IMG/VR virus record: IMGVR_UViG_3300049489_000400
Span: 1-64,000 of that record
DNA: 64,000 nt
Reading direction: 5' to 3' (one strand)
DNA from: a virus
Positions 12,176 to 46,201 of the stretch are shown one piece after another. The notes under the pieces are model-generated. The model searched no databases and was not told where the DNA came from. It was given only the letters and a program-made list of their open reading frames with translations. Made by a program: the position numbers and the translations under genes. The first letter of the stretch is position 1. Each line of letters starts with the position of its first letter.

Positions 12176-12640
12176 TTATTTACCAGTAGAACCGAATCCA
12201 CCTTCACCTCTTGAAGTGTCAGACAACTCTTCTGCTTCTACTGGGTTAGGCAATGCAATAGGAACGATCAACAATTGAGCAACCTTTTCTCCTACAGAAT
12301 AATGATAGTGTTTTTCTTCCTTATCAGCACACATGAATCTTGCTCTGATTTCCCCACGATAGCCTGAGTCAATTACTCCTACCGAATTTTTCAACATCAT
12401 CTGCTTATTAGTTACAGAACTTCTAGGGAAAAGCAATCCTACATATCCTTCAGGAATTTCAACCGCTAATCCTGTTCCGTATTCGATAAATGAAACATCT
12501 CTACTATGCTCTGTTCCATCTTCATTTTTACACATTTCAGCCTTCTGACTAGTGGCAATTAAATCCAAACCAGCATCGGTAGGATTTGCTCTTTGAGGAA
12601 TTACAGCCTCAGGAACTAATTTTTTGAACTTTATCTCCAT
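12176..12640 (-). CDS. dut: dUTPase (trimeric)
   Basis: All five motifs: AGLDL, PRSS, GVIDSGYRGEI, AQL, RGEGGFGSTG. Confidence 0.95.
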   Translation of the reverse strand: MEIKFKKLVPEAVIPQRANPTDAGLDLIATSQKAEMCKNEDGTEHSRDVSFIEYGTGLAVEIPEGYVGLLFPRSSVTNKQMMLKNSVGVIDSGYRGEIRARFMCADKEEKHYHYSVGEKVAQLLIVPIALPNPVEAEELSDTSRGEGGFGSTGK

Positions 12641-13044: not shown

Positions 13045-13689
13045 TTACCAATTAGTTTTTATCTTCACTACCGATGGTTCTTCAGGTTGACTCTTTGCCC
13101 ACTCTGACTCATACTCAAATTTATAACCATTGCAAGATTTCTTTGAACCGCTTAAACATTGAAGAATATCAGGTATATCGCATTCCAACACTGATGAAGC
13201 AACTTCTAAACAAGAAAATGAATATACAAATCCACTATCACTTCTCATGCTAGGTATTTCTGATATCAACCTTTTGTAACTTTCATCTTGCTCTGGGGTA
13301 CGCTCTTTATTCAGCGTCAAATTAGTAAGCTGAATCTCCAGACCTTCTAATTCAAGCAAATCTCTATACGCTACGATATTTTCTTTTTTATTGTAGAAAT
13401 TTTTGATTATGCTGAATGTCTGTTTTATGTATTCAAATTCACACAAAACCTTATCTTGTTTTTCGGATTTCAATTCATGAAAATCCTCTGATGAAATGAA
13501 CCTAAGCAACTTAAACATGTAAGATTCTATGTAACGAATATCAGGAATTGTACCTTGATTTGTTACTAGATCAAGATTCTTCTTTTCTAGTTCTTGAATC
13601 CTACATTCTAATTCGTAATTTTTATTTTCAAGAAAACCCTTTTCTATTTCTAGTTCCTCGATTTTTTGTTTGTATTTTCCGCCAAACAT
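13045..13689 (-). CDS. Coiled-coil protein with C-terminal NUMOD1-like HTH
   Basis: 'FSCLEVASSVLECDIPDILQCLSGSKKSCNGYKFEY' resembles NUMOD1; no nuclease motif seen. Confidence 0.55.
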   Translation of the reverse strand: MFGGKYKQKIEELEIEKGFLENKNYELECRIQELEKKNLDLVTNQGTIPDIRYIESYMFKLLRFISSEDFHELKSEKQDKVLCEFEYIKQTFSIIKNFYNKKENIVAYRDLLELEGLEIQLTNLTLNKERTPEQDESYKRLISEIPSMRSDSGFVYSFSCLEVASSVLECDIPDILQCLSGSKKSCNGYKFEYESEWAKSQPEEPSVVKIKTNW

Positions 13690-13898
13690 TATTCTACAAT
13701 TAAATTGTAACGATTCTCAACGCAAGATTCTTCAAGTTTTTTGAGTTCATCCGAACCTTTTACAGTGAAGCAGAAAAATTTACCACCTTCTTTTGTTTTG
13801 GAAGTCGATACATTTTTTAAGTCAAACTGTTTTAGGAAATTCTTATGCTCTGCTGACTGCGTGAATGAAGTCTCAAGTTTCGCTCTAATCTTGCTCAT
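13689..13898 (-). CDS. Hypothetical protein
   Basis: ORF track. Confidence 0.6.
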   Translation of the reverse strand: MSKIRAKLETSFTQSAEHKNFLKQFDLKNVSTSKTKEGGKFFCFTVKGSDELKKLEESCVENRYNLIVE

Positions 13899-14346
13899 AA
13901 ATTACTACGGTTATATTTAAATCGTTAAACTCTGAAATAAGCATATGTTCTACTTCATCCCAATCTCCACCTCCTATTCCGCAACCAATCAAAGGTATGC
14001 CGATTCTTAGGTCAGAAAATTTCTCTCTTACTCTTAGAAGTACAGATTGTAAGTGAACAAGCTTGAAGTCTGGACCAGGCTTAAACTGAGTATAGGCATT
14101 CATCACCTTTAAATTTGTGTCTGCTTTTGTCTTAACATCTACAACAGTGTAAGAACCTAGTTTATTACAGTCACCTCTTTTTGTCAAGGCATCGATTTTC
14201 TTTGCCTCTGGCCATCTTCGTCCGATTGGATAGGCTATTCCAGCAGCCATAGTCGCAAAGCAATTACAACCGTGGATTATCATATCGAACTCACCATCGT
14301 CTGCTAACTTTATCAAGTCGCCTTTGACGTAATTTAAACTTTCCAT
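13885..14346 (-). CDS. Macro domain (ADP-ribose processing) protein
   Basis: KGDL, HGCNCFATMAAGIA, NAYTQ, PLIGCGIGGGDW. Confidence 0.9.
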   Translation of the reverse strand: MESLNYVKGDLIKLADDGEFDMIIHGCNCFATMAAGIAYPIGRRWPEAKKIDALTKRGDCNKLGSYTVVDVKTKADTNLKVMNAYTQFKPGPDFKLVHLQSVLLRVREKFSDLRIGIPLIGCGIGGGDWDEVEHMLISEFNDLNITVVIYEQD

Positions 14347-15350: not shown

Positions 15351-15665
15351 TCAAAAGGAACTATCTTTATATACTTGTATTCCAGAAGACTTAGGATGGA
15401 TTTGTGAGTGTAATATTCCTCCATTTTGCTGTAAGGAATTATTTTGACCCTTTGCGAACCATAAACATGGTCTGAGAATCTCGATGTTGTTCTGCTGAGA
15501 ATATTCAATCTTAGGTTTGTTAAGATAAATTTCCATCATAGATTCTAGGAAAACTCTTCTCAAGCTAGGAAACTCATTTCTAAACTTATTCAGATTCCAT
15601 CTCTTCATGTAATTTTTAGCATGCTTGTCTAGAATCTTTTCAAACACTTCTACTTCTTTCTTCAT
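15351..15665 (-). CDS. Hypothetical protein (3' half may be frameshifted)
   Basis: ATGA overlap at 15665; an alternative open frame continues to 15329. Confidence 0.5.
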   Translation of the reverse strand: MKKEVEVFEKILDKHAKNYMKRWNLNKFRNEFPSLRRVFLESMMEIYLNKPKIEYSQQNNIEILRPCLWFAKGQNNSLQQNGGILHSQIHPKSSGIQVYKDSSF

Positions 15666-16120
15666 AACCAATCAGGTTTATCACGTTTTGTCCAATTTGA
15701 TATAGGCATCTTTTCACCCAAATAATATGCTCGATATGATTCTACAGCTGAGCCTAATTTGTATTGATCAGGCATAGCTAAAGCAAAATCCGTCATTTCT
15801 TTCTTCTCAAAATTAGGCATGTTCTTCAAACAGTATTCGATAACCGCCTTGCTTTTATGTACTTTGTTGTATCTGAAAGTATATTCCTTACATAGAAACA
15901 AACCTAACTTAACAAGCCATAAATAATTCGCTTTACTTTCTCTTGCCCATATTGCGCTAGGGTGATTAACATGAGTACATTTGTACGGTGCTTCACCTCC
16001 GTTAACGATAATTGAAGTACATAACAATTGAGCAGTTTCAAGAATCATCTTTACAACGTGCTTATCGTTGTGCATTTGAGCAGCAATCTTAGGGTTGTTA
16101 TGTAAAACAAATATGTTCAT
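15662..16120 (-). CDS. Pyrimidine-dimer DNA glycosylase / endonuclease V family protein
   Basis: MNIFVL...DKHVVKMILETAQLL...THVNHPSAIW...EYTFRYNKVHKS...SYRAYY. Confidence 0.85.
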   Translation of the reverse strand: MNIFVLHNNPKIAAQMHNDKHVVKMILETAQLLCTSIIVNGGEAPYKCTHVNHPSAIWARESKANYLWLVKLGLFLCKEYTFRYNKVHKSKAVIEYCLKNMPNFEKKEMTDFALAMPDQYKLGSAVESYRAYYLGEKMPISNWTKRDKPDWL

Positions 16121-28275: not shown

Positions 28276-28821
28276 CTACCTTCCATAATTAAAAAATTTG
28301 TCTTTACAAGAATTAAAACTCTGTCCTTTCATATCTCTATCACTGAGATTTACATCTGAAAAATCTACACCCCAATCAATATTCAATTCCTCATCAAAAG
28401 CAAATATTGATCTTTCAAATTCAGGAGCATACTGAAAATCTACTGCATAATTAACAACAGTATCATCTTCTAAACATAAGAATCCATGAGCAAAACCTTT
28501 AGGAATCAATATAGTTTTCCTGTCTTTGTCGTCCAAAACAACTTTAAAATTCTGACCGAATGTTTCAGAATCAGGTCTCAAATCTACAACAACATCTAAA
28601 ATAGAACCTTTTGAGCACCAAACTATCTTAGACTGTTCAAAAGGCTTTTCTTGGAAATGTAAACCTCTCAAAACACCTCTTTTAGACAAGGACTGATTTA
28701 GCTGAACCATATTGAAATTAAATTCTTTATGATAAAAAACTACGTTAAAAGTTCCTCTTTTGTCTTTAAATAAATCTGGCTGTAGTACGAATAAGCCATT
28801 TGCTAACTCCAATGATTCCAT
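28276..28821 (-). CDS. rmlC: dTDP-4-dehydrorhamnose 3,5-epimerase
   Basis: DKRG, GVLRGLHFQ, QSKIV, DVVVDLRPDSETFG, IPKGFAHGF, LSDRD. Confidence 0.92.
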   Translation of the reverse strand: MESLELANGLFVLQPDLFKDKRGTFNVVFYHKEFNFNMVQLNQSLSKRGVLRGLHFQEKPFEQSKIVWCSKGSILDVVVDLRPDSETFGQNFKVVLDDKDRKTILIPKGFAHGFLCLEDDTVVNYAVDFQYAPEFERSIFAFDEELNIDWGVDFSDVNLSDRDMKGQSFNSCKDKFFNYGR

Positions 28822-37418: not shown

Positions 37419-38585
37419 TTATTTCTTTCCTTTTTTGAGTCTAGCACGAATATCATCCATACTCATTTTACCTTTCTTCTTGGCAGGCTTTTCTTCCTCC
37501 TCATCGTCGTCATCGGAATCATCTTCATCGTCGTCTGAGTCTTCGTCCTCATCTTCCTCATCTTCCTCAACTACTTTTTTCTTAGAAGATGATTTTTTCT
37601 TTGGAGTTTCTTCCTCTTCTTCATCGTCATCGTCTGAATCGTCTTCATCCTCGTCCTCATCTTCCTCTTCAACTACTTTTTTAGCAGCTTTCTTTTTAGG
37701 TTCAGGTTTTTTAGATGATTTCTTTTTAGGTTTTTCATCCTCTTCTTCATCGTCATCATCGTCAGAATCCTCATATTGAGATTTAACTTTTTCTACGATT
37801 TCCAACCAATCTTCATCTTCAAAGAAGTCGATTTCATTTTCAGTATCAAAAAATCTCAAACCTTCTAATGCTAGTTCAAAATCCTTCAATCCGTAAACAT
37901 TCAAATAAAGTTCTTGTAAAGATTTAGCCTTGTCGAATTTCTCAAGATTTTCATCTGAGATTGGAGTAGCTTTCTTACCAACAGACACTTCGTAATAATC
38001 TTCACCTTTCTTCTTGTTAGGCTTTGAATTATACTTGATCAATAATGGTAAACCGTCATCTGGGTCAGTGAATGGGTCAACTTCGATAGGCTCATCATCA
38101 TCCTCTACAAAAGTAGCTTTGTTGATAGCATCACGAACAGTCTTTTTGAATGAGATCAATCCAAATTCTCTTTCTTCTTTTGAAATCTTCTCAGCGTAAG
38201 CAATCCAAGAATGTTCAGCACCTAAACCGCCTTTCCAATCAGTAACTTTAGAAAGTTTTTCCTTATCAGACAGATTCTTTTGACAAAAAGAAACATATTC
38301 TTCAATAATATCCTTTTTAGTTCCTCCGTGCTGTCTTGAATTCAAAACTGTTCTTTTTACAGGGTCTCCATTTTCACCCTCAATTGTAAGCCAGTGTCTT
38401 TTTCTTAATACGAAAAAATCTACTCCTTCATGAGCAGGGAAAAGTCTAAATTTGTTAGTTTTTCCTTCCTCAATTTCAAGAAATTCGCTTCTGGAGTGAG
38501 CTCCAATAAGTTCATTCTCTTTGTCTACTTTTTGTTTAAGTAAATCGACCTTGGCTGGCTTATACTTACTTCTTAAATTTGCCAT
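37419..38585 (-). CDS. ssDNA-binding protein (gp32-like) with long acidic/basic disordered tail
   Basis: N-terminal 'KFRLFP...HW...DPFTDPDDG...YEV' core; position between UvsY-like and RecA; tail of alternating D/E and K blocks. Confidence 0.7.
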   Translation of the reverse strand: MANLRSKYKPAKVDLLKQKVDKENELIGAHSRSEFLEIEEGKTNKFRLFPAHEGVDFFVLRKRHWLTIEGENGDPVKRTVLNSRQHGGTKKDIIEEYVSFCQKNLSDKEKLSKVTDWKGGLGAEHSWIAYAEKISKEEREFGLISFKKTVRDAINKATFVEDDDEPIEVDPFTDPDDGLPLLIKYNSKPNKKKGEDYYEVSVGKKATPISDENLEKFDKAKSLQELYLNVYGLKDFELALEGLRFFDTENEIDFFEDEDWLEIVEKVKSQYEDSDDDDDEEEDEKPKKKSSKKPEPKKKAAKKVVEEEDEDEDEDDSDDDDEEEEETPKKKSSSKKKVVEEDEEDEDEDSDDDEDDSDDDDEEEEKPAKKKGKMSMDDIRARLKKGKK

Positions 38586-38616
38586 TAGATTTCTTTTTTA
38601 TTTTTAATTAACGTTG

Positions 38617-39150
38617 TTACTTAATCCTACCTTCTTTTATCTTAAAATAGATATTGTTCATTTGTTTTTGAATTATATCTAAATCAACATCTCCAGGTCT
38701 AAGCGTCATGCTCAATTTATCTAGCTTAGTTGACTTGTCTCTAGCAGCCTGATAAATAGAATACATATATTCTTTTTCTTTTTGTATTCTATGCATTTTA
38801 GTCCTTTTGACCTTCCAAATCTTGTCGCACAAAAGTGCACTTTCTACTTCATCGACAGTGGCTCTTTTAACTTTACCCTTCTCATCTGAAGTTTCTAATT
38901 CCTCTCTTAACTGATTTTTTCGTTTTGCCTCATAAATAGACAAATCTAATTTTGCCTGCTGAAACTCATTATCCATATCAGCTGCTAACAAACCTAGTTT
39001 ATTTACAACTACTGGGAAGGTTATCAATTCAGCCATAAGATTAGAATAATCAATCTTCAAGATTTTGTCGATGTCTATGTCATTAAAGTCACCAACTTCA
39101 AATTTGACTACCTTTTCGCCAATATTGAATATTAATTCTCTTTGTTTCAT
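38617..39150 (-). CDS. UvsY-like recombination mediator
   Basis: 'LKIDYSNL..EL...', 'ATVDEVESAL' helical pattern; gene context. Confidence 0.55.
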   Translation of the reverse strand: MKQRELIFNIGEKVVKFEVGDFNDIDIDKILKIDYSNLMAELITFPVVVNKLGLLAADMDNEFQQAKLDLSIYEAKRKNQLREELETSDEKGKVKRATVDEVESALLCDKIWKVKRTKMHRIQKEKEYMYSIYQAARDKSTKLDKLSMTLRPGDVDLDIIQKQMNNIYFKIKEGRIK

Positions 39151-39413
39151 TCTATGACTTCTTTCTTGTTAGTATTAAGATTTTCATGAACTTCAATCAT
39201 TCTATTCAAATAATCTCTAGCTTTCAATAAATCTGTTAAATTCTTAGCTTTTGTAGAACCAGGTCTTGTAAACCTGTCTAAATATCGCTTTACATTTTCT
39301 GAAGCCCAGATGTCTCCATAATCAGTACCTTTTCTGTAGTTCAGGGAAATTTGATCAAATTCCTTATCTCCATACTTGGCTCTGTTAGATTTCTCTAATT
39401 CATTTACGTCCAT
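39147..39413 (-). CDS. DUF3310-like protein
   Basis: 'NVKRYLDRF...K...DLLKARDYLNR'. Confidence 0.65.
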   Translation of the reverse strand: MDVNELEKSNRAKYGDKEFDQISLNYRKGTDYGDIWASENVKRYLDRFTRPGSTKAKNLTDLLKARDYLNRMIEVHENLNTNKKEVIE

Positions 39414-40000
39414 AACTCTTTATCTATTATTTCTTGTAAAATCGAAGTGTCCTTACCTTCTAAATAAGGAATCAATTCTTTACAAGAAAGTTTAACTTTC
39501 TCTACACAATAAAATTGTTGATTCAATAATGATGTATTGCCAAGATTTAATTCCTTCTTTAGGTAAAATAACATAGACAACCAGTCAGCCACCTTAACTA
39601 TTTTCTTAACTAGGAATGGGACTGAAGTCATTATGTCAGATAACAATTTTTCAGATTCTCTGTCCTTATTGAATTTAGCATTAACCTTATCTTTTATAAT
39701 TAAGTCAAGCAAATTTCTCATTTCTTCACCGTAAGCATTTCCGTATTTCACTCCATGAACTATGTCTCCTGTGAACATCTCATCAAAATCGTGAAATATA
39801 GCATAAGTTGTTATTTGAAGCTTCAAATTTATGTCATCTTCATTCAGGATTTCCTCAGCAAGTAATCTGCTTACCATAGCCACAAAGAATGAATGATGAG
39901 CAACAGTTTCGTCTTTGATTCTATTCAAACCATTCCATCTGACCATATTGTTAAGTTGGTCAAAATCTGGATCATGAAAAATCTTATCAATTATATTCAT
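39404..40000 (-). CDS. HD-domain 5'-deoxynucleotidase/dNTPase (YfbR/DatZ-like)
   Basis: RW...ETVAHHSFFV...HDFDEMFTGDI...VKVAD. Confidence 0.88.
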   Translation of the reverse strand: MNIIDKIFHDPDFDQLNNMVRWNGLNRIKDETVAHHSFFVAMVSRLLAEEILNEDDINLKLQITTYAIFHDFDEMFTGDIVHGVKYGNAYGEEMRNLLDLIIKDKVNAKFNKDRESEKLLSDIMTSVPFLVKKIVKVADWLSMLFYLKKELNLGNTSLLNQQFYCVEKVKLSCKELIPYLEGKDTSILQEIIDKELWT

Positions 40001-40316
40001 TTGCTAAAATTTCTTGTTCAATTATACTTAACTCTGCTTCATTAAATTCCTCTAATTCAGCTTCTTGTCTTTTTTCAAATCTCCAAGTAGCAAAAGCTGG
40101 TTCTTGCTTTCTGCCTATCAATTTTATGAATACAATTGGATTTGAAATTTCTTCCAACAATATACCGACTACAATATCATCGTTATGTAATATTTCTCTG
40201 ATTGTGTAAATTCTGCCCTTCTTAACCCAATTTACATACATATTGATAACTGGGAATAGCATCTCCACCTTTATAGAATCATCTACACATAAAACCTTAT
40301 CACCTACTTCTAACAT
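39987..40316 (-). CDS. Hypothetical protein
   Basis: 'VGDKVLCVDD...YTIRE...FATWRF' small SH3-like phage family. Confidence 0.65.
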   Translation of the reverse strand: MLEVGDKVLCVDDSIKVEMLFPVINMYVNWVKKGRIYTIREILHNDDIVVGILLEEISNPIVFIKLIGRKQEPAFATWRFEKRQEAELEEFNEAELSIIEQEILANEYN

Positions 40317-40320
40317 AGAA

Positions 40321-43300
40321 TCAATTTATAACTAAGAACTCTGTCCTATTCCTAGTAGAACCTCTTCTTTCACTAATGCTATTCAAAGATTTTCCATATT
40401 CCTTTTGATAATTTATCTCACAATTAACTGCTATCAAAGATTTTTTAGCTTCAAGTTTTTCCATCTTTTCTAAAACACGCTCGTAGCAATCATTCCAAAC
40501 AGTCAAAATCATAACTACATTGTTAGATTCTATAGAAACTCTAGCATAGGGTAATTTGGATTGTTTGTACTTCAAGTGTTTGATATACATTATTCTCCCC
40601 ACTATTGTAGCTTCTTTAGGTGATTTTAATTCCTTATAAGATTTCTTATCATATTCCTCAGCAGAAACATAATTCTTGACAAGATTTTTAATCTTGCTTT
40701 TCTTTTCATATTTCTGTAAAAGTGACAGAAAGTTTATATCTCCAAATCCCGTCAATGCCTTTTGTTCTGTTACCCAATACCAGTTTGAATTACTATTCTC
40801 GTTTAAAACTTCTGGATATGGCTCCGATTTGGTTAAATTAGCATGAAATTCTAAAAGTGATTTTCTCACTTTCTCTTCATCGATTTTTAGACCATATTGT
40901 CCTCCTATATTATCAAAAGCACCAGCTATAATCAAAGCCTTTACAACTCTTTTGTTTACTTTGTTTTTAGGAACTCTATTTATAAAATCTTCCAAGTCAG
41001 AAAAGTCACCATTCTGATTTCTTTCGTTCAGTATCACTCTGGCTGCGACATCGCCTACATTTTTGATTTTAGTAAGAGACCAATAAATGCTATTGTCGTC
41101 AGGGAAACCAACGAAAAATAGGTCAGATTTATTGACACAAGGTGGCTTAATCTGAATATCCGAACCAATCTTTCTTATCTCAGAAATTCTGTTAGGTACT
41201 TCCTCTTCATAGTTTGCAAAATTCAAACTTGCTGTCCAGAACTCTAAAGGATATTTCACCTTCAAATATTGACACCAATATCCCATTAGAGCATAAGCGG
41301 CAGCATGAGACCTGTTGAACCCGTAGCTAGAAAACGCATTCATCTTATCCCATATTTTTACAGCATCTTCCTCTTTATCCCCACCTAGTAAATTATTGTA
41401 ATATTCAACAAATCTGCTCTTAAATAAATTAAGATTTTCCTTGTCGAATTTTTTCATATAAGTCCTTACTTGATCAGATTCTGCAAGTGACAAACCTCCA
41501 GCGACCACCATCGCCTGCATAATCTGTTCTTGATAAACATAAAGACCAAATGTATTCTTAGTAACTTCTTTTAAGAATGGATCATAAACAGGCTTTTTCT
41601 TTCCATGTTTAATTTCAGCAAAATCCTTATGTGCATTGGAATCCATTGGGCCAGGTCTAAATAAGGCATTCATTGAAATTAAATCTTCAACACCATCAGG
41701 TTTCACTTGTTTAGAATACGTTTTCAATCCTGACGTTCCGAACTGAAAAACATCTTCATTCCATCCGTTTTTGAAAAATTCCATCACGCTTGGAATATCA
41801 ATTTTTATCTTGTTTAGATTTACCTTTTTGCCTCTATTTTTCTTTATCAAATCTAATGTGTTCCTGAACTTATCCAGCTGAGCAATTCCTAATATATCAG
41901 CCTTCAAAAATCCAGCAGCATCGATGAACTTACCTTCCCATTCAGAAACTAATTGGTCATCTATCTTTTTAACAGGCATCCAATCATATATAGTCATAGG
42001 ATTCCCTGATTTATCCTGCTTAGGAACAATCAGTACCGCAGACGCATGTATGGAAGATGTTTTAGGTTGATTGATAGAAATTCTAACTAAATCACAAACT
42101 TCAGCATTATTCTGAACGAACTTTTTCAGCACAGGTTTTTCAACTGCATTTTCAAATATATCACCCCAAGAACTTTTACCGATAACATCAGGTATTTCCT
42201 TAGTGGCAAAATTTGCATCTTGAAAAGAAACTCCAGAAACCCTAGAAAAATCTTTCAAAGCTGACTTGACTTTCATTCTAGCATAAGTACCAATAGAACA
42301 AACATTGTTATAAGTATATTTTTCTTCAATATATCTTTTAACATCACCTCTTCTCAACCCTTCAAAATCTATATCAATATCAGGCAATGCATCCGCTGAC
42401 TTAGCACGCTCTCCTGAAACCCTCGTCTTGTTCAAAAAACGCTCAAATAGTAGATTGTATTGAATAGGGTCTATTTCTATAATCCCCAGAAGATAGGCTA
42501 CCAAAGAACCTCCTGCCGAACCCCTACCAGGACCAACTAGAATATCTTTTGTTTTGCACCATTCAACAATATCCCATAATATCAAGAAATAATCAACGAA
42601 TCCCGCACCTACAATTACACTATTTTCTTCTTCAAGTCTTTCGTAATATTGTATTATTTTATCCTCATCATCTGGGAACTTGTCAATGACCTTTCTTTGA
42701 AAACCTTTTTCTAATAATTCATGATATAAAGACTCTGAATCTGGATGTTCAAACTTAGGCAATTTATGATTACCAGTATCTATCATATAGTCGCACTTTT
42801 CGGCAATTTCTACAGTATTTGAAACAGATTCTAGTATTAAATCAAACTTATCAGGATTCTTTGAAAAATGAGGCATTAATTTATCTAAAGTCTCATCTAT
42901 TGTTTTGTAATATTGATCACTAGATGACAATTGAGTTTTCTTATCTACCTTATTAAGAACAGATTTGATTTTGTAATCAGATTTTTCGATGTAATAAGAA
43001 TCGTTAATCAAAACAGGCTTCAATACATCACTATAATTATCCATATAGTATCTGATATTTCTAAGATTTTGTATATCAACAGAATCGTCATCGAACTCAA
43101 CAGAATCTATCTGATAATACAAATCTCCTTTAAAAATCTTTTTGTATTTTTTAATCATTTTTCTACCAATGTCATTTTTGATATTGGAATTAAAATAACT
43201 ATCTGTAGGTATGACACATATCAATCCTTCAGAATGATTCAAGAAGTCCTCTTCAGAAACAAATTTGTCATTGTCTACATTTATGAATTTACCAATTCTT

Positions 43301-43920
43301 AATAGGTTTTTCCAACCTATTTCATTTTTTACAAATAGCTTTATATCGAATAAAGAATGGTGTTCATCATCCTGATTATATTCGTAAGCTACTGATATTG
43401 TTTCTCCAAGGATAGATTTTACACCCTTCTTTTTACAAGCTAATTGAAAAGGTAAAGTTGCAGCTAATGTATTTTTATCAGACAGACCTAAAATCTTCTG
43501 ACCTAAGAAAACTGTTTTAGCTACCCACTGTTCTGGTTCTGCTGAGCCGTTTAATAACTCGTATCCAGTATGGACTCCTAAGTGGATAAAATCTATTTCC
43601 AAATCTGAATCGTACGAACCAACATTTATGAATTCTTTGAACTCTGGGATAAAAATATCTTCATTGTATTCATCCTTCTTTGTCTTTTTAGAAGAATAAT
43701 AGAACTTGTCTCCCCACTTAAATAATATGTGAGTAATATCTTCCTCATAGATTCTGTAGAACTCTTCTTCAGTAAGAATGAAGGAAAAATCATTCGATAT
43801 GACCTTTCCTTCTTTCTCTTCTACAAAAACTAATTTCCCAAGTCCTTCTATTTCTACAATATTCCCTTCAATATTGCATTTTATAGATTTTTGTTCAATC
43901 CAGTTTTTTAATTCTTTCAT
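40321..43920 (-). CDS. dnaE: DNA polymerase III alpha subunit (family C)
   Basis: PHP HLGVHTGY, GPGRGSAGGSLVAYLLGI, FERFLN, PDIDIDF, KADILG, YGFNRSHAAAY; about 110-aa N-terminal extension. Confidence 0.95.
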   Translation of the reverse strand: MKELKNWIEQKSIKCNIEGNIVEIEGLGKLVFVEEKEGKVISNDFSFILTEEEFYRIYEEDITHILFKWGDKFYYSSKKTKKDEYNEDIFIPEFKEFINVGSYDSDLEIDFIHLGVHTGYELLNGSAEPEQWVAKTVFLGQKILGLSDKNTLAATLPFQLACKKKGVKSILGETISVAYEYNQDDEHHSLFDIKLFVKNEIGWKNLLRIGKFINVDNDKFVSEEDFLNHSEGLICVIPTDSYFNSNIKNDIGRKMIKKYKKIFKGDLYYQIDSVEFDDDSVDIQNLRNIRYYMDNYSDVLKPVLINDSYYIEKSDYKIKSVLNKVDKKTQLSSSDQYYKTIDETLDKLMPHFSKNPDKFDLILESVSNTVEIAEKCDYMIDTGNHKLPKFEHPDSESLYHELLEKGFQRKVIDKFPDDEDKIIQYYERLEEENSVIVGAGFVDYFLILWDIVEWCKTKDILVGPGRGSAGGSLVAYLLGIIEIDPIQYNLLFERFLNKTRVSGERAKSADALPDIDIDFEGLRRGDVKRYIEEKYTYNNVCSIGTYARMKVKSALKDFSRVSGVSFQDANFATKEIPDVIGKSSWGDIFENAVEKPVLKKFVQNNAEVCDLVRISINQPKTSSIHASAVLIVPKQDKSGNPMTIYDWMPVKKIDDQLVSEWEGKFIDAAGFLKADILGIAQLDKFRNTLDLIKKNRGKKVNLNKIKIDIPSVMEFFKNGWNEDVFQFGTSGLKTYSKQVKPDGVEDLISMNALFRPGPMDSNAHKDFAEIKHGKKKPVYDPFLKEVTKNTFGLYVYQEQIMQAMVVAGGLSLAESDQVRTYMKKFDKENLNLFKSRFVEYYNNLLGGDKEEDAVKIWDKMNAFSSYGFNRSHAAAYALMGYWCQYLKVKYPLEFWTASLNFANYEEEVPNRISEIRKIGSDIQIKPPCVNKSDLFFVGFPDDNSIYWSLTKIKNVGDVAARVILNERNQNGDFSDLEDFINRVPKNKVNKRVVKALIIAGAFDNIGGQYGLKIDEEKVRKSLLEFHANLTKSEPYPEVLNENSNSNWYWVTEQKALTGFGDINFLSLLQKYEKKSKIKNLVKNYVSAEEYDKKSYKELKSPKEATIVGRIMYIKHLKYKQSKLPYARVSIESNNVVMILTVWNDCYERVLEKMEKLEAKKSLIAVNCEINYQKEYGKSLNSISERRGSTRNRTEFLVIN

Positions 43921-45110
43921 TACATTTTTCCAATTGGAGAAGTCAAATTAACAGAAACTATCTCTTTGTCTTTAACCTTAGAAGCAAAGAAATTAACAGC
44001 TAATGCTATTATATCTAACGATGGGTAAAAGTTAGAAAGATTAGATATTTTGTCAATCGTTTTCCACTTGTCTGAGTCAGTTCTCGAAGTCGATTTGTAT
44101 TCTACATACATCATCAAAAGATCATAAACCAAATGAAGATATTTTGAGAAATGCATCAATGTTTGCTCTTCTGTTTCTGTTATTCTTTTTCCAGACTTTA
44201 TTGAGTCTATGATCATGCTAAGGAAATAATCTACCTCTGCTAATCTAGGTTCAATTGATTCTGAATCGAAATTCATATCCATTCTTGCTGGAACAAATAC
44301 ATCGTACAAATCTTCAAACTGACCATTACTCAACTGAACCTCATCATACATTTTCCAAGCAATAGGATTATCATTATATATATGAAGACTTTGAGAATTG
44401 TGAGTTTGAGTGCCTAACTCAATACCTAAAATGTTAGCCATAATTTCAGTCAAGAAACTGAATTGGAAAACATTAGTGGGTAAACCCCAATGTAAATCAT
44501 TACTTCTGTTAGAAATAGTCGTTCTCAATTTTCCATTTCTGATTTTCAAGAATACCATATCGTTACAAGGCAAATCCTTAGATTTAGTTCCTAAGTCCAA
44601 ATCTGCATTCCAAATCTGCATAACTGCTCTTCTGGTTTCAGAATCTTTATGAAGGTCTTTTAGGGTCTGAAGAATCTGATCAACACCTTTATTCATTTGC
44701 TCTACTGCGTGACCATTATTCTCTGGTGAGGTAGGTAAAGTCCTATCGAAAGAGGAAACACCATGTTTTCTCAGTCTAAACCCATATGGAGCATGGAAAT
44801 TAACCCCATCGTCAGAATAATTCTTCATATTAGAATTGAAGATATCAAGAAATGCTACATCTTTCTCTCCTTTGAAAATCCAAATAGCTTCAGCAAGAAG
44901 GAAAAATATGTTTATATCTCTACCATTGTTTCCTACACAACGTCTGTACGGATTAGTGATTGTTGTCTTGAAGTCTATAATTTCTTTAGTATCCCCATTT
45001 CTGCTCTCTACAGAATCTCCATTCTCAATAACGTACTTGTTTATGAAAGGATAAGTTGAAGAGAAATTACTTGTCACAACAGAATCATTAATAATATTTT
45101 TCAAAGTCAT
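43920..45110 (-). CDS. Thymidylate-synthase-family enzyme, dUMP hydroxymethylase-like
   Basis: SRNG, YSDDG, YGFRL, RRAV, DLPCN, NRSNDLHWGLPTN, SLHIY; C-terminal extension. Confidence 0.8.
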   Translation of the reverse strand: MTLKNIINDSVVTSNFSSTYPFINKYVIENGDSVESRNGDTKEIIDFKTTITNPYRRCVGNNGRDINIFFLLAEAIWIFKGEKDVAFLDIFNSNMKNYSDDGVNFHAPYGFRLRKHGVSSFDRTLPTSPENNGHAVEQMNKGVDQILQTLKDLHKDSETRRAVMQIWNADLDLGTKSKDLPCNDMVFLKIRNGKLRTTISNRSNDLHWGLPTNVFQFSFLTEIMANILGIELGTQTHNSQSLHIYNDNPIAWKMYDEVQLSNGQFEDLYDVFVPARMDMNFDSESIEPRLAEVDYFLSMIIDSIKSGKRITETEEQTLMHFSKYLHLVYDLLMMYVEYKSTSRTDSDKWKTIDKISNLSNFYPSLDIIALAVNFFASKVKDKEIVSVNLTSPIGKM

Positions 45111-45140
45111 AATAAAGATTTTTATTTTTAGTAACTATGC

Positions 45141-45168
45141 GAAAAAGGCACCCAATCGAGTGCCTTTT
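45141..45168 (-). terminator. Intrinsic terminator
   Basis: AAAAGGCAC...GTGCCTTTT hairpin. Confidence 0.75.
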
Positions 45169-45187: not shown

Positions 45188-46201
45188 TTACTTCTTAGCT
45201 TTCTTTTTCGCAGGAGCAGCTGGCGCTTCTTCTTTCTTTGAAGATTTAACTTTCTCAGCTTTTTTCGCATTTGAAGATTTCAAATCTTTCTCCATCTTCT
45301 CACGATTTTTCCCAAGCTTGTCATCTTTCTTAGAAAGGTTAGCTACAACTTCATCGAAACCATCTTTGTTTTCTTTGATACATTCTACCAACTCATCTAA
45401 TGAGATTCCCATCACAAGCATGTTACCAGACCATGATTTTTTGATTTCAAAATCTTCTCCGAACAAATCACGTAAAACATTCTCGTCACGTACTGAAGAC
45501 ATGTAAACACGTCCGATGATTTCTCCATCTTTCGTAACTTTAGGTGAATCGAAAGACATGAATACTTTCTTGTTATTCTTACCTAAGAATTTAACAGAAA
45601 CACCTCCGTTAGCAATAAAGTTGTATTCAAAATCTTTTCCTAATGCTTTCTTCAACGCATCGAATTTTTTCGCATCCTCTTCTGACTGTAAAGGATTCAA
45701 ACGCTTAGAAACTTTCGGCTCAGCTTTTGCTTTCTCCTTTTTTGTAGTTTCTTTTTTAGCTTTCTTATCAGCTGATTTTTGAACTTTGTCGTTCTTTTTC
45801 TCAACTTCTACACTTTTCTTAGAAGATGATTTTTTCTTTGGAGCAGGCTCTTCATCTTCCTCTTCTTCATCCTCGTCCTCATCTTCCTCTTCTTCATCCT
45901 CGTCGTCTGAATCATCCTCATCCTCATCCTCGTCATCAGAATCTTCGTCTTCATCTTCTGAATCCTCGTCCTCAACTTCGTCAGCTAAATCGTCATTAGC
46001 TTGTTCGCTATCTTCATACATAGCATCTACCATTTCGAACAAATCTTCATACGAATCATCGTCCACGTCTTCGATATCATTCTCATTCAAGAATTCAATC
46101 ATTTGCTTTCTCGCTTCTTCAACGGTACTAACACCTTTGATTCCTACGCCAGCAAGTTCCTTAACTTGTTCCTTGCTCAACTTTACTTCTTTCTTTGCCA
46201 T
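45188..46201 (-). CDS. Protein with long acidic tract and Lys/Ala-rich tail (nucleoid/replication-associated candidate)
   Basis: About 45-residue D/E run, PKKKSSSKK, histone-H1-like APAAPAKKKAKK end; monocistron with its own promoter and terminator. Confidence 0.7.
   Translation of the reverse strand: MAKKEVKLSKEQVKELAGVGIKGVSTVEEARKQMIEFLNENDIEDVDDDSYEDLFEMVDAMYEDSEQANDDLADEVEDEDSEDEDEDSDDEDEDEDDSDDEDEEEEDEDEDEEEEDEEPAPKKKSSSKKSVEVEKKNDKVQKSADKKAKKETTKKEKAKAEPKVSKRLNPLQSEEDAKKFDALKKALGKDFEYNFIANGGVSVKFLGKNNKKVFMSFDSPKVTKDGEIIGRVYMSSVRDENVLRDLFGEDFEIKKSWSGNMLVMGISLDELVECIKENKDGFDEVVANLSKKDDKLGKNREKMEKDLKSSNAKKAEKVKSSKKEEAPAAPAKKKAKK

Follow-up and report, generated by a model that had tools for sequence, protein, structure and literature searches.

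Does the virus represented by IMG/VR record IMGVR_UViG_3300049489_000400 build its DNA with 5-hydroxymethyluracil (hmU) in place of thymine? The question is raised by a minus-strand transcription unit in which the gene for a homolog of thymidylate synthase (TS) is followed by genes for a DnaE-type (family C) DNA polymerase and an HD-domain phosphohydrolase. We analyzed the first 64 kb of this record (positions 1 to 64,000; referred to here as the window). The record is a single 98,717-bp viral contig with a completeness rating of 100%, and terminase, portal, and baseplate genes are present in its genome. The G+C content of the window is approximately 33%, and the minus strand carries nearly all of the genes. 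We consider it likely that the TS homolog is a deoxyuridine monophosphate (dUMP) hydroxymethylase, that hmU or a derivative of it replaces thymine, and that the HD enzyme excludes thymine made by the host. Thymine replacement is a known phage strategy; the lineage that would carry it here is new and widespread.

Affiliation of the TS homolog

A tblastn search of the TS homolog against 50,697 phage records returned, as top matches, the proven dUMP hydroxymethylases of phages SPO1 (gp29; 39.5% identity; E value, 1e-40), SP8, and SP10, and uncharacterized homologs from Bacillus phages and from podophages similar to Rhodoferax phage P26218 ranked alongside them. Regarding protein families, the best PHROG match was phrog_5131 (E value, 6e-75, versus 3e-37 for phrog_160), with the match reaching residue 345. 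The same family is the best one for SPO1 gp29, SP10 gp188, and the hydroxymethylases of Pseudomonas phage M6, P26218, and Bacillus phage YungSlug. The hydroxymethylases of the ViI-like phage SJ3 and of phage phiW-14 fall best into phrog_3676, and Escherichia coli ThyA and T4 gp42 into phrog_160. All eight NCBIfam ThyA equivalog models scored the TS homolog far below their cutoffs (e.g., 78.8 versus 174.55 bits).

The first-pass annotation of this DNA had described an Asn at the substrate-specificity position, indicative of dUMP, together with PCN, RSND, and WG in place of the ThyA motifs and a C-terminal extension. Each of these features is present: the protein contains LPCND, NRSNDLHWGLPTN, and an extension of approximately 140 amino acids (aa). 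The residues for dUMP binding and catalysis are kept in the alignment, where R37, E74, Y109, R160/161, C182, R202, S203, D205, H243, and Y245 each match the equivalent ThyA residue and show no variation among 22 homologs. All members of the clade have Asn at the base-specificity position (N213, in LPTN), which corresponds to N177 of ThyA and to the equivalent Asn of gp29; T4 gp42 has Asp there. The combination of PCN, NRSND.HWG, and the uracil-type Asn was common to every dUMP hydroxymethylase compared, whereas ThyA has PCH and RSCD.FLG. Two parts of ThyA, namely, its C terminus and the segment TIWDEW, whose tryptophans pack against the folate and protect the methylene intermediate, have no counterpart in the aligned window protein. 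At 396 aa, the TS homolog compares with 383 aa for SPO1 gp29 and 382 aa for SP10 gp188, all with a long C terminus. The two Bacillus phage enzymes thus share with the window protein (at about 40% identity) the TS core with its diagnostic motifs, a C-terminal helical extension of approximately 130 aa, and the best PHROG; the window protein differs in lying on its own sub-branch of Bacteroidota-linked sequences.

This placement came from a maximum-likelihood tree of 30 proteins (264 core columns), including six ThyA sequences and three dCMP hydroxymethylases. The window clade (support, 97/99), a homolog from Pedobacter, and all known dUMP hydroxymethylases formed one clade (100/99), apart from the six ThyA sequences and from the three dCMP hydroxymethylases (100/100 for the latter). 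The protein therefore grouped with dUMP hydroxymethylases and not with ThyA, as the first-pass annotation had supposed. The tree replaced a preliminary one with one dCMP hydroxymethylase and two ThyA sequences, in which the position of T4 gp42, on a branch of length 10, was not resolved.

The AlphaFold2 (AF2) model of the TS homolog (pLDDT, 88.8) pointed to the same architecture. Its best match in the PDB was the CMP 5-hydroxymethylase MilA (5B6D and 5JNH), which aligned over 360 to 370 columns (TMq, 0.64 to 0.68) that take in the TS core as well as the C-terminal helical extension; helices 286 to 388 of the model superpose on MilA. ThyA structures matched over just 280 to 295 columns (TMq, about 0.5). 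In the genome, rated 100% complete, the TS homolog is the sole PF00303 gene, and a genome search for ThyX found none. Taken together, the comparisons of sequence, signature residues, phylogeny, structure, and gene context give good support to assigning this predicted enzyme to the dUMP hydroxymethylases and not to ThyA.

The HD phosphohydrolase and a proposed scheme for thymine replacement

The HD protein had been labeled a YfbR/DatZ-like nucleotidase in the first-pass annotation. The YfbR part of this label stood, as a YfbR/OxsA type with intact catalytic residues, and the DatZ part was retained only at the level of PHROG annotation (phrog_7076, "dATP triphosphohydrolase"; E value, 1e-21). 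The PF12917 score was 70.7 bits (cutoff, 25.9). In the PDB, the protein matched OxsA (E value, 7e-8) and YfbR (9e-8), with aligned RW, H, HD, E, D, and D residues; those aligned with YfbR 2PAQ include the Glu that is mutated in 2PAR. The catalytic residues are conserved across the window clade, M6, and P26218. No DatZ chain occurred among the PDB sequence matches at E values up to 1; DatZ structures are deposited in the PDB.

A YfbR-like HD gene also lies directly 3' of the hydroxymethylase gene in phage M6 and in the P26218-like podophages, both of which are unrelated to the window phage. In M6, the cluster consists of gp51 to gp54 followed by a PF18723 protein, the hydroxymethylase, and the HD protein. 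In the P26218-like podophages, a nucleoside kinase, a "pyrimidine hmase," and an HD hydrolase are encoded in the replication module, and the HD protein is weakly homologous to that of the window (25% identity; E value, 3e-7). These podophages differ from the window phage in genome size (36 to 38 kb), in their family A polymerase, and in having no PF18723; we know of no test of the composition of their DNA. That the hydroxymethylase and HD genes are paired in each of three groups of phages unrelated to one another (the window clade, M6, and the P26218-like phages) would be surprising if the two had no functional link, and this recurrence is the strongest argument for one. Our literature search found no paper tying an HD-domain gene to a dUMP hydroxymethylase.

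In hmU phages, thymidine nucleotides are depleted by dTTPase and dTMPase activities, and phage 15599 has a dTTPase/dUTPase with a dUTPase fold (PMC8989533; PMC13458397). Therefore, enzymes that exclude thymine would be expected, though of various folds. A conceptual parallel is offered by DatZ of the 2-aminoadenine (Z-genome) phages, an HD-superfamily enzyme that removes the canonical nucleotide, with the modified one then being incorporated (PMC10201439). The DatZ family is the nearest annotated PHROG of the window HD protein, and the removal of a canonical nucleotide is the shared idea. The two differ in that the best PDB matches of the window protein are OxsA and YfbR and that its proposed substrate would be a thymidine nucleotide. 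Removal of thymidine mono- and triphosphate (dTMP and dTTP) is a candidate role for the HD enzyme.

The following scheme would account for these features. The thiolate of Cys182 would attack C6 of dUMP, which the phage dUTPase would supply, and methylene-tetrahydrofolate would give the one-carbon unit. The exocyclic methylene intermediate would then be hydrated and not reduced, yielding 5-hydroxymethyl-dUMP (hmdUMP). The dUTPase assigned at 12176 in the first-pass annotation is bona fide, as it exceeds the TIGR00576 cutoff (Table 1). As the phage itself encodes no thymidylate synthase, the corresponding triphosphate (hmdUTP) would feed the phage's own DnaE replicase, and thymine in the DNA would give way to hmU or to a derivative formed after replication. 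Encoded on the same transcript, two genes downstream of the hydroxymethylase, the HD phosphohydrolase would most likely dephosphorylate dTMP and/or dTTP and so exclude thymine made by the host. The analysis establishes the family assignments, the conservation of catalytic residues, the position in the tree, and the synteny; from these we infer that hydroxymethylation takes place, which substrate the HD enzyme uses, how far thymine is replaced, and what chemical form the base finally has. On balance, thymine in the phage DNA has probably been replaced by hmU or a derivative.

The wider pathway and rival explanations

Outside the window, the genome encodes a 338-aa protein with PF18723 (HMUDK_hel, formerly aGPT-Pplase clade 1; genome positions 97476 to 98492, minus strand; E value, 4e-48). 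Its gene lies approximately 50 kb from that of the hydroxymethylase and is conserved in a 97-kb relative (47% identity). PF18723 was present once each in SP10, M6, phiW-14, SJ3, and YungSlug; it was found neither in SPO1 or the P26218-like phages nor, above the cutoff, in 14 control genomes. The presence of this domain suggests that hmU may not be the final base but a precursor of it.

We searched the genome for the partners that the domain has in M6, where a P-loop 5-hydroxymethyldeoxyuridine (5-hmdU) DNA kinase, aGPT-Pplase2, and pyridoxal phosphate-dependent and radical-SAM enzymes are encoded. None of these was detected in the window phage, which does share with M6 both PF18723 and the HD gene. 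The M6 kinase (gp54) found its copies in SP10, phiW-14, and SJ3 and none in the genome of the window phage, and a hidden Markov model (HMM) built from four 5-hmdU DNA kinases gave nothing below an E value of 0.5 in the six-frame translation. For aGPT-Pplase2, a phmmer search of the same translation with a 291-aa M6 open reading frame (ORF), which we take to be gp51 from its position upstream of gp54 and not from annotation, found nothing; as a single-sequence search, it could be escaped by a distant homolog. The T4 alpha-glucosyltransferase domain PF11440 had no match in the genome, and two ORFs at genome positions 84021 to 86118 had no Pfam or NCBIfam match at E values up to 0.01. The hmU may be processed further by another route, or the PF18723 protein may have another role on hmU DNA.

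A P-loop protein at 1027 to 2001 was considered as a 5-hmdU DNA kinase and rejected, with no match in SP10, M6, phiW-14, SJ3, or SPO1. In Bacillus phage YungSlug (MT416612.2), a homolog of the 5-hmdU DNA kinase (E value, 8e-57 with the four-kinase HMM), PF18723, and the hydroxymethylase are encoded within 5 kb, and the three genes are annotated merely as hypothetical proteins or thymidylate synthase. YungSlug probably hypermodifies thymidine.

Several observations weigh against thymine replacement as we propose it. The HD protein misses the NCBIfam YfbR equivalog NF003009 (53 bits; cutoff, 122), so the substrate range of YfbR is not transferable to it, and nothing found here indicates its base preference. 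Four of the five reference hmU phages (SPO1, SP10, SJ3, and phiW-14) have no YfbR-like gene, and the family is consequently not a general part of hmU pathways. In the tree, the window sub-clade forms a third branch beside the SPO1-type and ViI/M6-type enzymes, and the branching order among the three is not resolved. Genome searches for hmdUMP kinase, thymidylate kinase, and dCMP deaminase detected none of them; part of the classical pathway is thus either missing or encoded by unrecognized genes. Finally, PF18723 is a lone gene here, with neither the 5-hmdU DNA kinase nor aGPT-Pplase2 detected.

If the TS homolog is a dUMP hydroxymethylase, the HD protein could still be a general deoxynucleotide phosphatase or triphosphohydrolase unrelated to thymine exclusion (e.g., for salvage from host DNA breakdown, pool balancing, or counter-defense), with thymine replaced only partially or by other means. 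The YfbR and OxsA families, to judge from the family names, act on many deoxynucleotides, and the scarcity of YfbR-like genes among the reference phages fits such a role, as does the inclusion in the unit of DnaE and UvsY-like genes, which do not serve nucleotide pools. Set against this is the adjacency of hydroxymethylase and HD genes in three unrelated groups, and we regard an unrelated role as unlikely.

A different identity for the TS homolog itself has far less in its favor. Were it a divergent ordinary thymidylate synthase making dTMP for canonical DNA, its TS fold and its full set of dUMP-binding residues would be explained, as would the name "thymidylate synthase" that its homologs carry in the source databases. 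The protein nevertheless lies outside the ThyA clade and below every ThyA equivalog cutoff, has PCN where ThyA has PCH, has no ThyA C terminus, and has an extension in common with gp29 and MilA. The genome moreover contains PF18723, otherwise found in the tested thymidine-hypermodifying phages and in YungSlug (for which hypermodification is only predicted) and not in SPO1 or the controls. We therefore consider an ordinary synthase extremely improbable. Nearly as improbable is an enzyme that hydroxymethylates or alkylates another pyrimidine nucleotide (dCMP, CMP, or UMP), giving DNA of the 5-hydroxymethylcytosine type or a product outside DNA. The closest solved structure is indeed that of a CMP hydroxymethylase, MilA; however, the match is approximately 21% identical and mostly one of architecture, and MilA uses CMP in antibiotic biosynthesis with a different base-specificity residue. 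In addition, Asn213 is invariant where dCMP hydroxymethylases have Asp, and those enzymes form a separate clade. Our preferred reading, thymine replacement with exclusion of host thymine by the HD enzyme, also has a more far-reaching form: an undescribed pathway in which a third lineage of dUMP hydroxymethylases, a YfbR-type thymidine-nucleotide phosphatase, DnaE, and a stand-alone PF18723 protein would make a new hmU derivative without the 5-hmdU DNA kinase or aGPT-Pplase2. We put this forward as a tentative and rather doubtful possibility; the YfbR-type family has not yet been tied to the classical thymidine-nucleotide phosphatase activity.

The replicase, the transcription unit, and the phage lineage

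The DnaE protein contains, in order, the Pfam domains PHP, DNA_pol3_alpha, finger, and HHH_6 (E values, 2e-15 to 3e-64), and its nearest relatives are encoded by Chryseobacterium, Cellulophaga, Tenacibaculum, and Bacteroides phages. The first-pass annotation had suggested that known hmU phages do without a family C polymerase. This was borne out by the five reference phages (SPO1, SP10, ViI-like SJ3, M6, and phiW-14), none of which has a Pol III alpha domain. The SPO1 group uses family A polymerases fused to uracil-DNA glycosylase, and T-even phages use family B (PMC10201439). We found no paper on hmU with a DnaE replicase, and as far as could be checked, the combination of a dUMP hydroxymethylase with DnaE is undescribed. 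Conversely, a homolog of the hydroxymethylase was absent from the three phages tested as nearest by DnaE (Chryseobacterium MA9V-3, Bacteroides BS-TP1, and a human fecal contig). In SPO1 and SP10, where the neighboring polymerase is of family A, and also in YungSlug, the hydroxymethylase gene likewise adjoins that of the polymerase, whatever the polymerase family; such adjacency reflects placement in a replication module, and there is no sign that DnaE is specially adapted. SPO1 differs further from the window phage, which has both a YfbR-like HD gene and PF18723, in having neither.

Table 1. Features of the transcription unit and related features in the window
Feature	Position	Strand	Details
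Intrinsic-terminator-like hairpin	45142-45168	-	AAAAGGCAC/GTGCCTTTT plus T-run; 9-bp stem, 8-nt loop; direct reading of the sequence
CATAGTTA, copy of recurrent motif CAWMGTTA, candidate promoter element	45132-45139	-	22 nt before the ATG at 45110
TS-family enzyme, predicted dUMP hydroxymethylase, 396 aa	43920-45110	-	PF00303, E value 4e-24; phrog_5131, E value 6e-75
DnaE-type (family C) polymerase, 1199 aa	40321-43920	-	Start overlaps TS stop by 1 nt; four Pfam domains
109-aa ORF	39987-40316	-	Lineage-specific, without family match
YfbR/OxsA-type HD phosphohydrolase, 198 aa	39404-40000	-	PF12917, E value 1.6e-19; phrog_7076, E value 1e-21
88-aa ORF, weakly DUF3310/DUF1599-like	39147-39413	-	phrog_236, E value 1e-4
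UvsY-like protein (predicted), 177 aa, last gene of the unit	38617-39150	-	AF2 model; ATGA overlap with 88-aa ORF
CAACGTTA, next intergenic CAWMGTTA copy	38609-38616	-	Heads the next unit (SSB-like gene, 37419-38585)
Trimeric dUTPase	12176-12640	-	PF00692, E value 7e-20; TIGR00576, 115.2 bits (cutoff, 102.55)

The six minus-strand genes of the unit abut or overlap; from the TS to the 88-aa gene, neighbors share 1 to 14 nt or sit 4 nt apart (Table 1). The first-pass annotation had given the order as TS, DnaE, small ORF, HD gene, and 88-aa ORF, starting just after a terminator, and both the order (by coordinates and strand) and the start agree with our reading. The hairpin with its T-run is placed after the stop of the upstream gene (45188 to 46201), which it ends, and was missed by a consensus terminator scan. 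The motif CAWMGTTA occurs in 28 copies (10 expected), with 25 on the coding strand. Given that the next intergenic copy lies only beyond the 177-aa gene, the unit extends to that gene. The five genes named earlier thus belong to the unit, and its end needed correction, from the 88-aa ORF to the sixth, UvsY-like gene. The idea of an operon devoted to base replacement was not upheld, because UvsY-like, SSB-like, RecA-like, and SbcCD genes follow on: the unit is the nucleotide/replication end of a larger replication-recombination module.

The arrangement is conserved in 80 related IMG/VR loci (44 to 89% identity). DnaE follows the TS gene in 79 of them, and an HD gene follows in 69, with many of the others cut by contig ends. 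The order kept in these loci is p194, p337, TS, DnaE, HD, small ORF, UvsY-like, and SSB-like, and the TS-DnaE-HD arrangement is not due to chance. In many of the related loci, the best DnaE match begins 1.7 to 2.5 kb past the hydroxymethylase gene, which suggests that DnaE is split in those relatives or that they have an insertion such as an intron, intein, or homing endonuclease.

In a large protein collection, we detected 912 homologs of the hydroxymethylase (about 390 to 400 aa), many of them on contigs of 90 to 127 kb. Within a set of species-representative genomes, homologs occurred in Bacteroidota records only: Chitinophagales, a 97-kb contig binned with a metagenome-assembled genome of Bacteroidales, Saprospiraceae, an unclassified bin, and the chromosome of Pedobacter sp. 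V48. The first-pass annotation had regarded the virus as a Bacteroidota phage, and both the nearest DnaE relatives and the genomes holding hydroxymethylase homologs are in line with this; a Bacteroidota host is likely, with binning counting as weak evidence. The module is a conserved trait of a large clade of uncultured Bacteroidota phages with genomes of roughly 90 to 125 kb. No cultured relative of the module was present in the phage collection searched, and a DNA-level search of that collection gave just short matches to the DnaE core. Our literature search found no description of hmU in Bacteroidota phages, except for an early domain-based remark on the ThyA of phiB124-14.

Pedobacter sp. 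V48 is a bacterial isolate in which three genes stand in a row on a 247-kb contig (NZ_AWRU01000008.1, 44079 to 51119), encoding a MazG-like pyrophosphatase, the hydroxymethylase homolog (37% identity), and a thymidylate-kinase-like P-loop protein. This trio may be a prophage remnant or a cellular nucleotide-modification cassette.

If our reading is correct, a large uncultured group of roughly 100-kb Bacteroidota-linked phages (hundreds of contigs in IMG/VR and other assemblies, with hosts from Chitinophagales and Saprospiraceae to Bacteroidales) would have non-canonical thymine. This would bear on their escape from restriction and CRISPR defenses and on their recovery by standard sequencing libraries, and a family C replicase would join the polymerases that tolerate hmU templates. 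The hydroxymethylase-HD pairing provides a testable candidate for the thymidine-nucleotide-depleting activity long known biochemically in hmU phages, and the lone PF18723 without the kinase offers a route to studying the function of that domain itself.

Of the remaining genes in the unit, the one for the 177-aa protein is predicted to encode a UvsY-like recombination mediator. In an AF2 model derived from 12 orthologs, the protein forms an extended helical hairpin, and only T4 UvsY structures appear among the model's best PDB matches (E value, 0.02; TMt, 0.75; root mean square deviation, 2.3 to 2.8). The gene is kept in 63 of the 80 related loci, directly before the SSB-like, RecA-like, and SbcCD genes. 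The 109-aa ORF had no family match in profile searches (Pfam, PHROG, and NCBIfam), and an ortholog was present in one of the 80 loci. For the 88-aa ORF, the earlier label "DUF3310-like" keeps a weak basis in its PHROG match and in a 58%-identical ortholog (DUF3310; E value, 0.028; 14.9 bits, with a cutoff of 24); the window copy itself has no Pfam match. In a distant relative, the ORF occupying this place in the gene order matched DUF1599 ("nucleotide modification associated domain 1"; E value, 5e-6; 27.2 bits, with a cutoff of 25). The T7 gp1.7 nucleotide kinase carries DUF3310, and hhalign aligned the 88-aa family with its DUF3310 region at an E value of 0.11, which is not significant. That the 88-aa ORF encodes the missing hmdUMP kinase is only a guess.

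Elsewhere in the window, also on the minus strand, the gene at 28276 to 28821 encodes RmlC (dTDP-4-dehydrorhamnose 3,5-epimerase; Pfam E value, 5.8e-54); this phage, for which depletion of thymidine nucleotides is predicted, encodes in RmlC an enzyme of dTDP-sugars, which could be linked to DNA or surface glycosylation. Three further minus-strand genes encode a macro-domain/phosphatase-like protein (13885 to 14346; phrog_335; E value, 1e-51), a pyrimidine-dimer-glycosylase-like protein (15662 to 16120; phrog_624; E value, 8e-61), and a protein with a weak I-HmuI NUMOD-like domain (13045 to 13689); these proteins could act on modified or damaged DNA.

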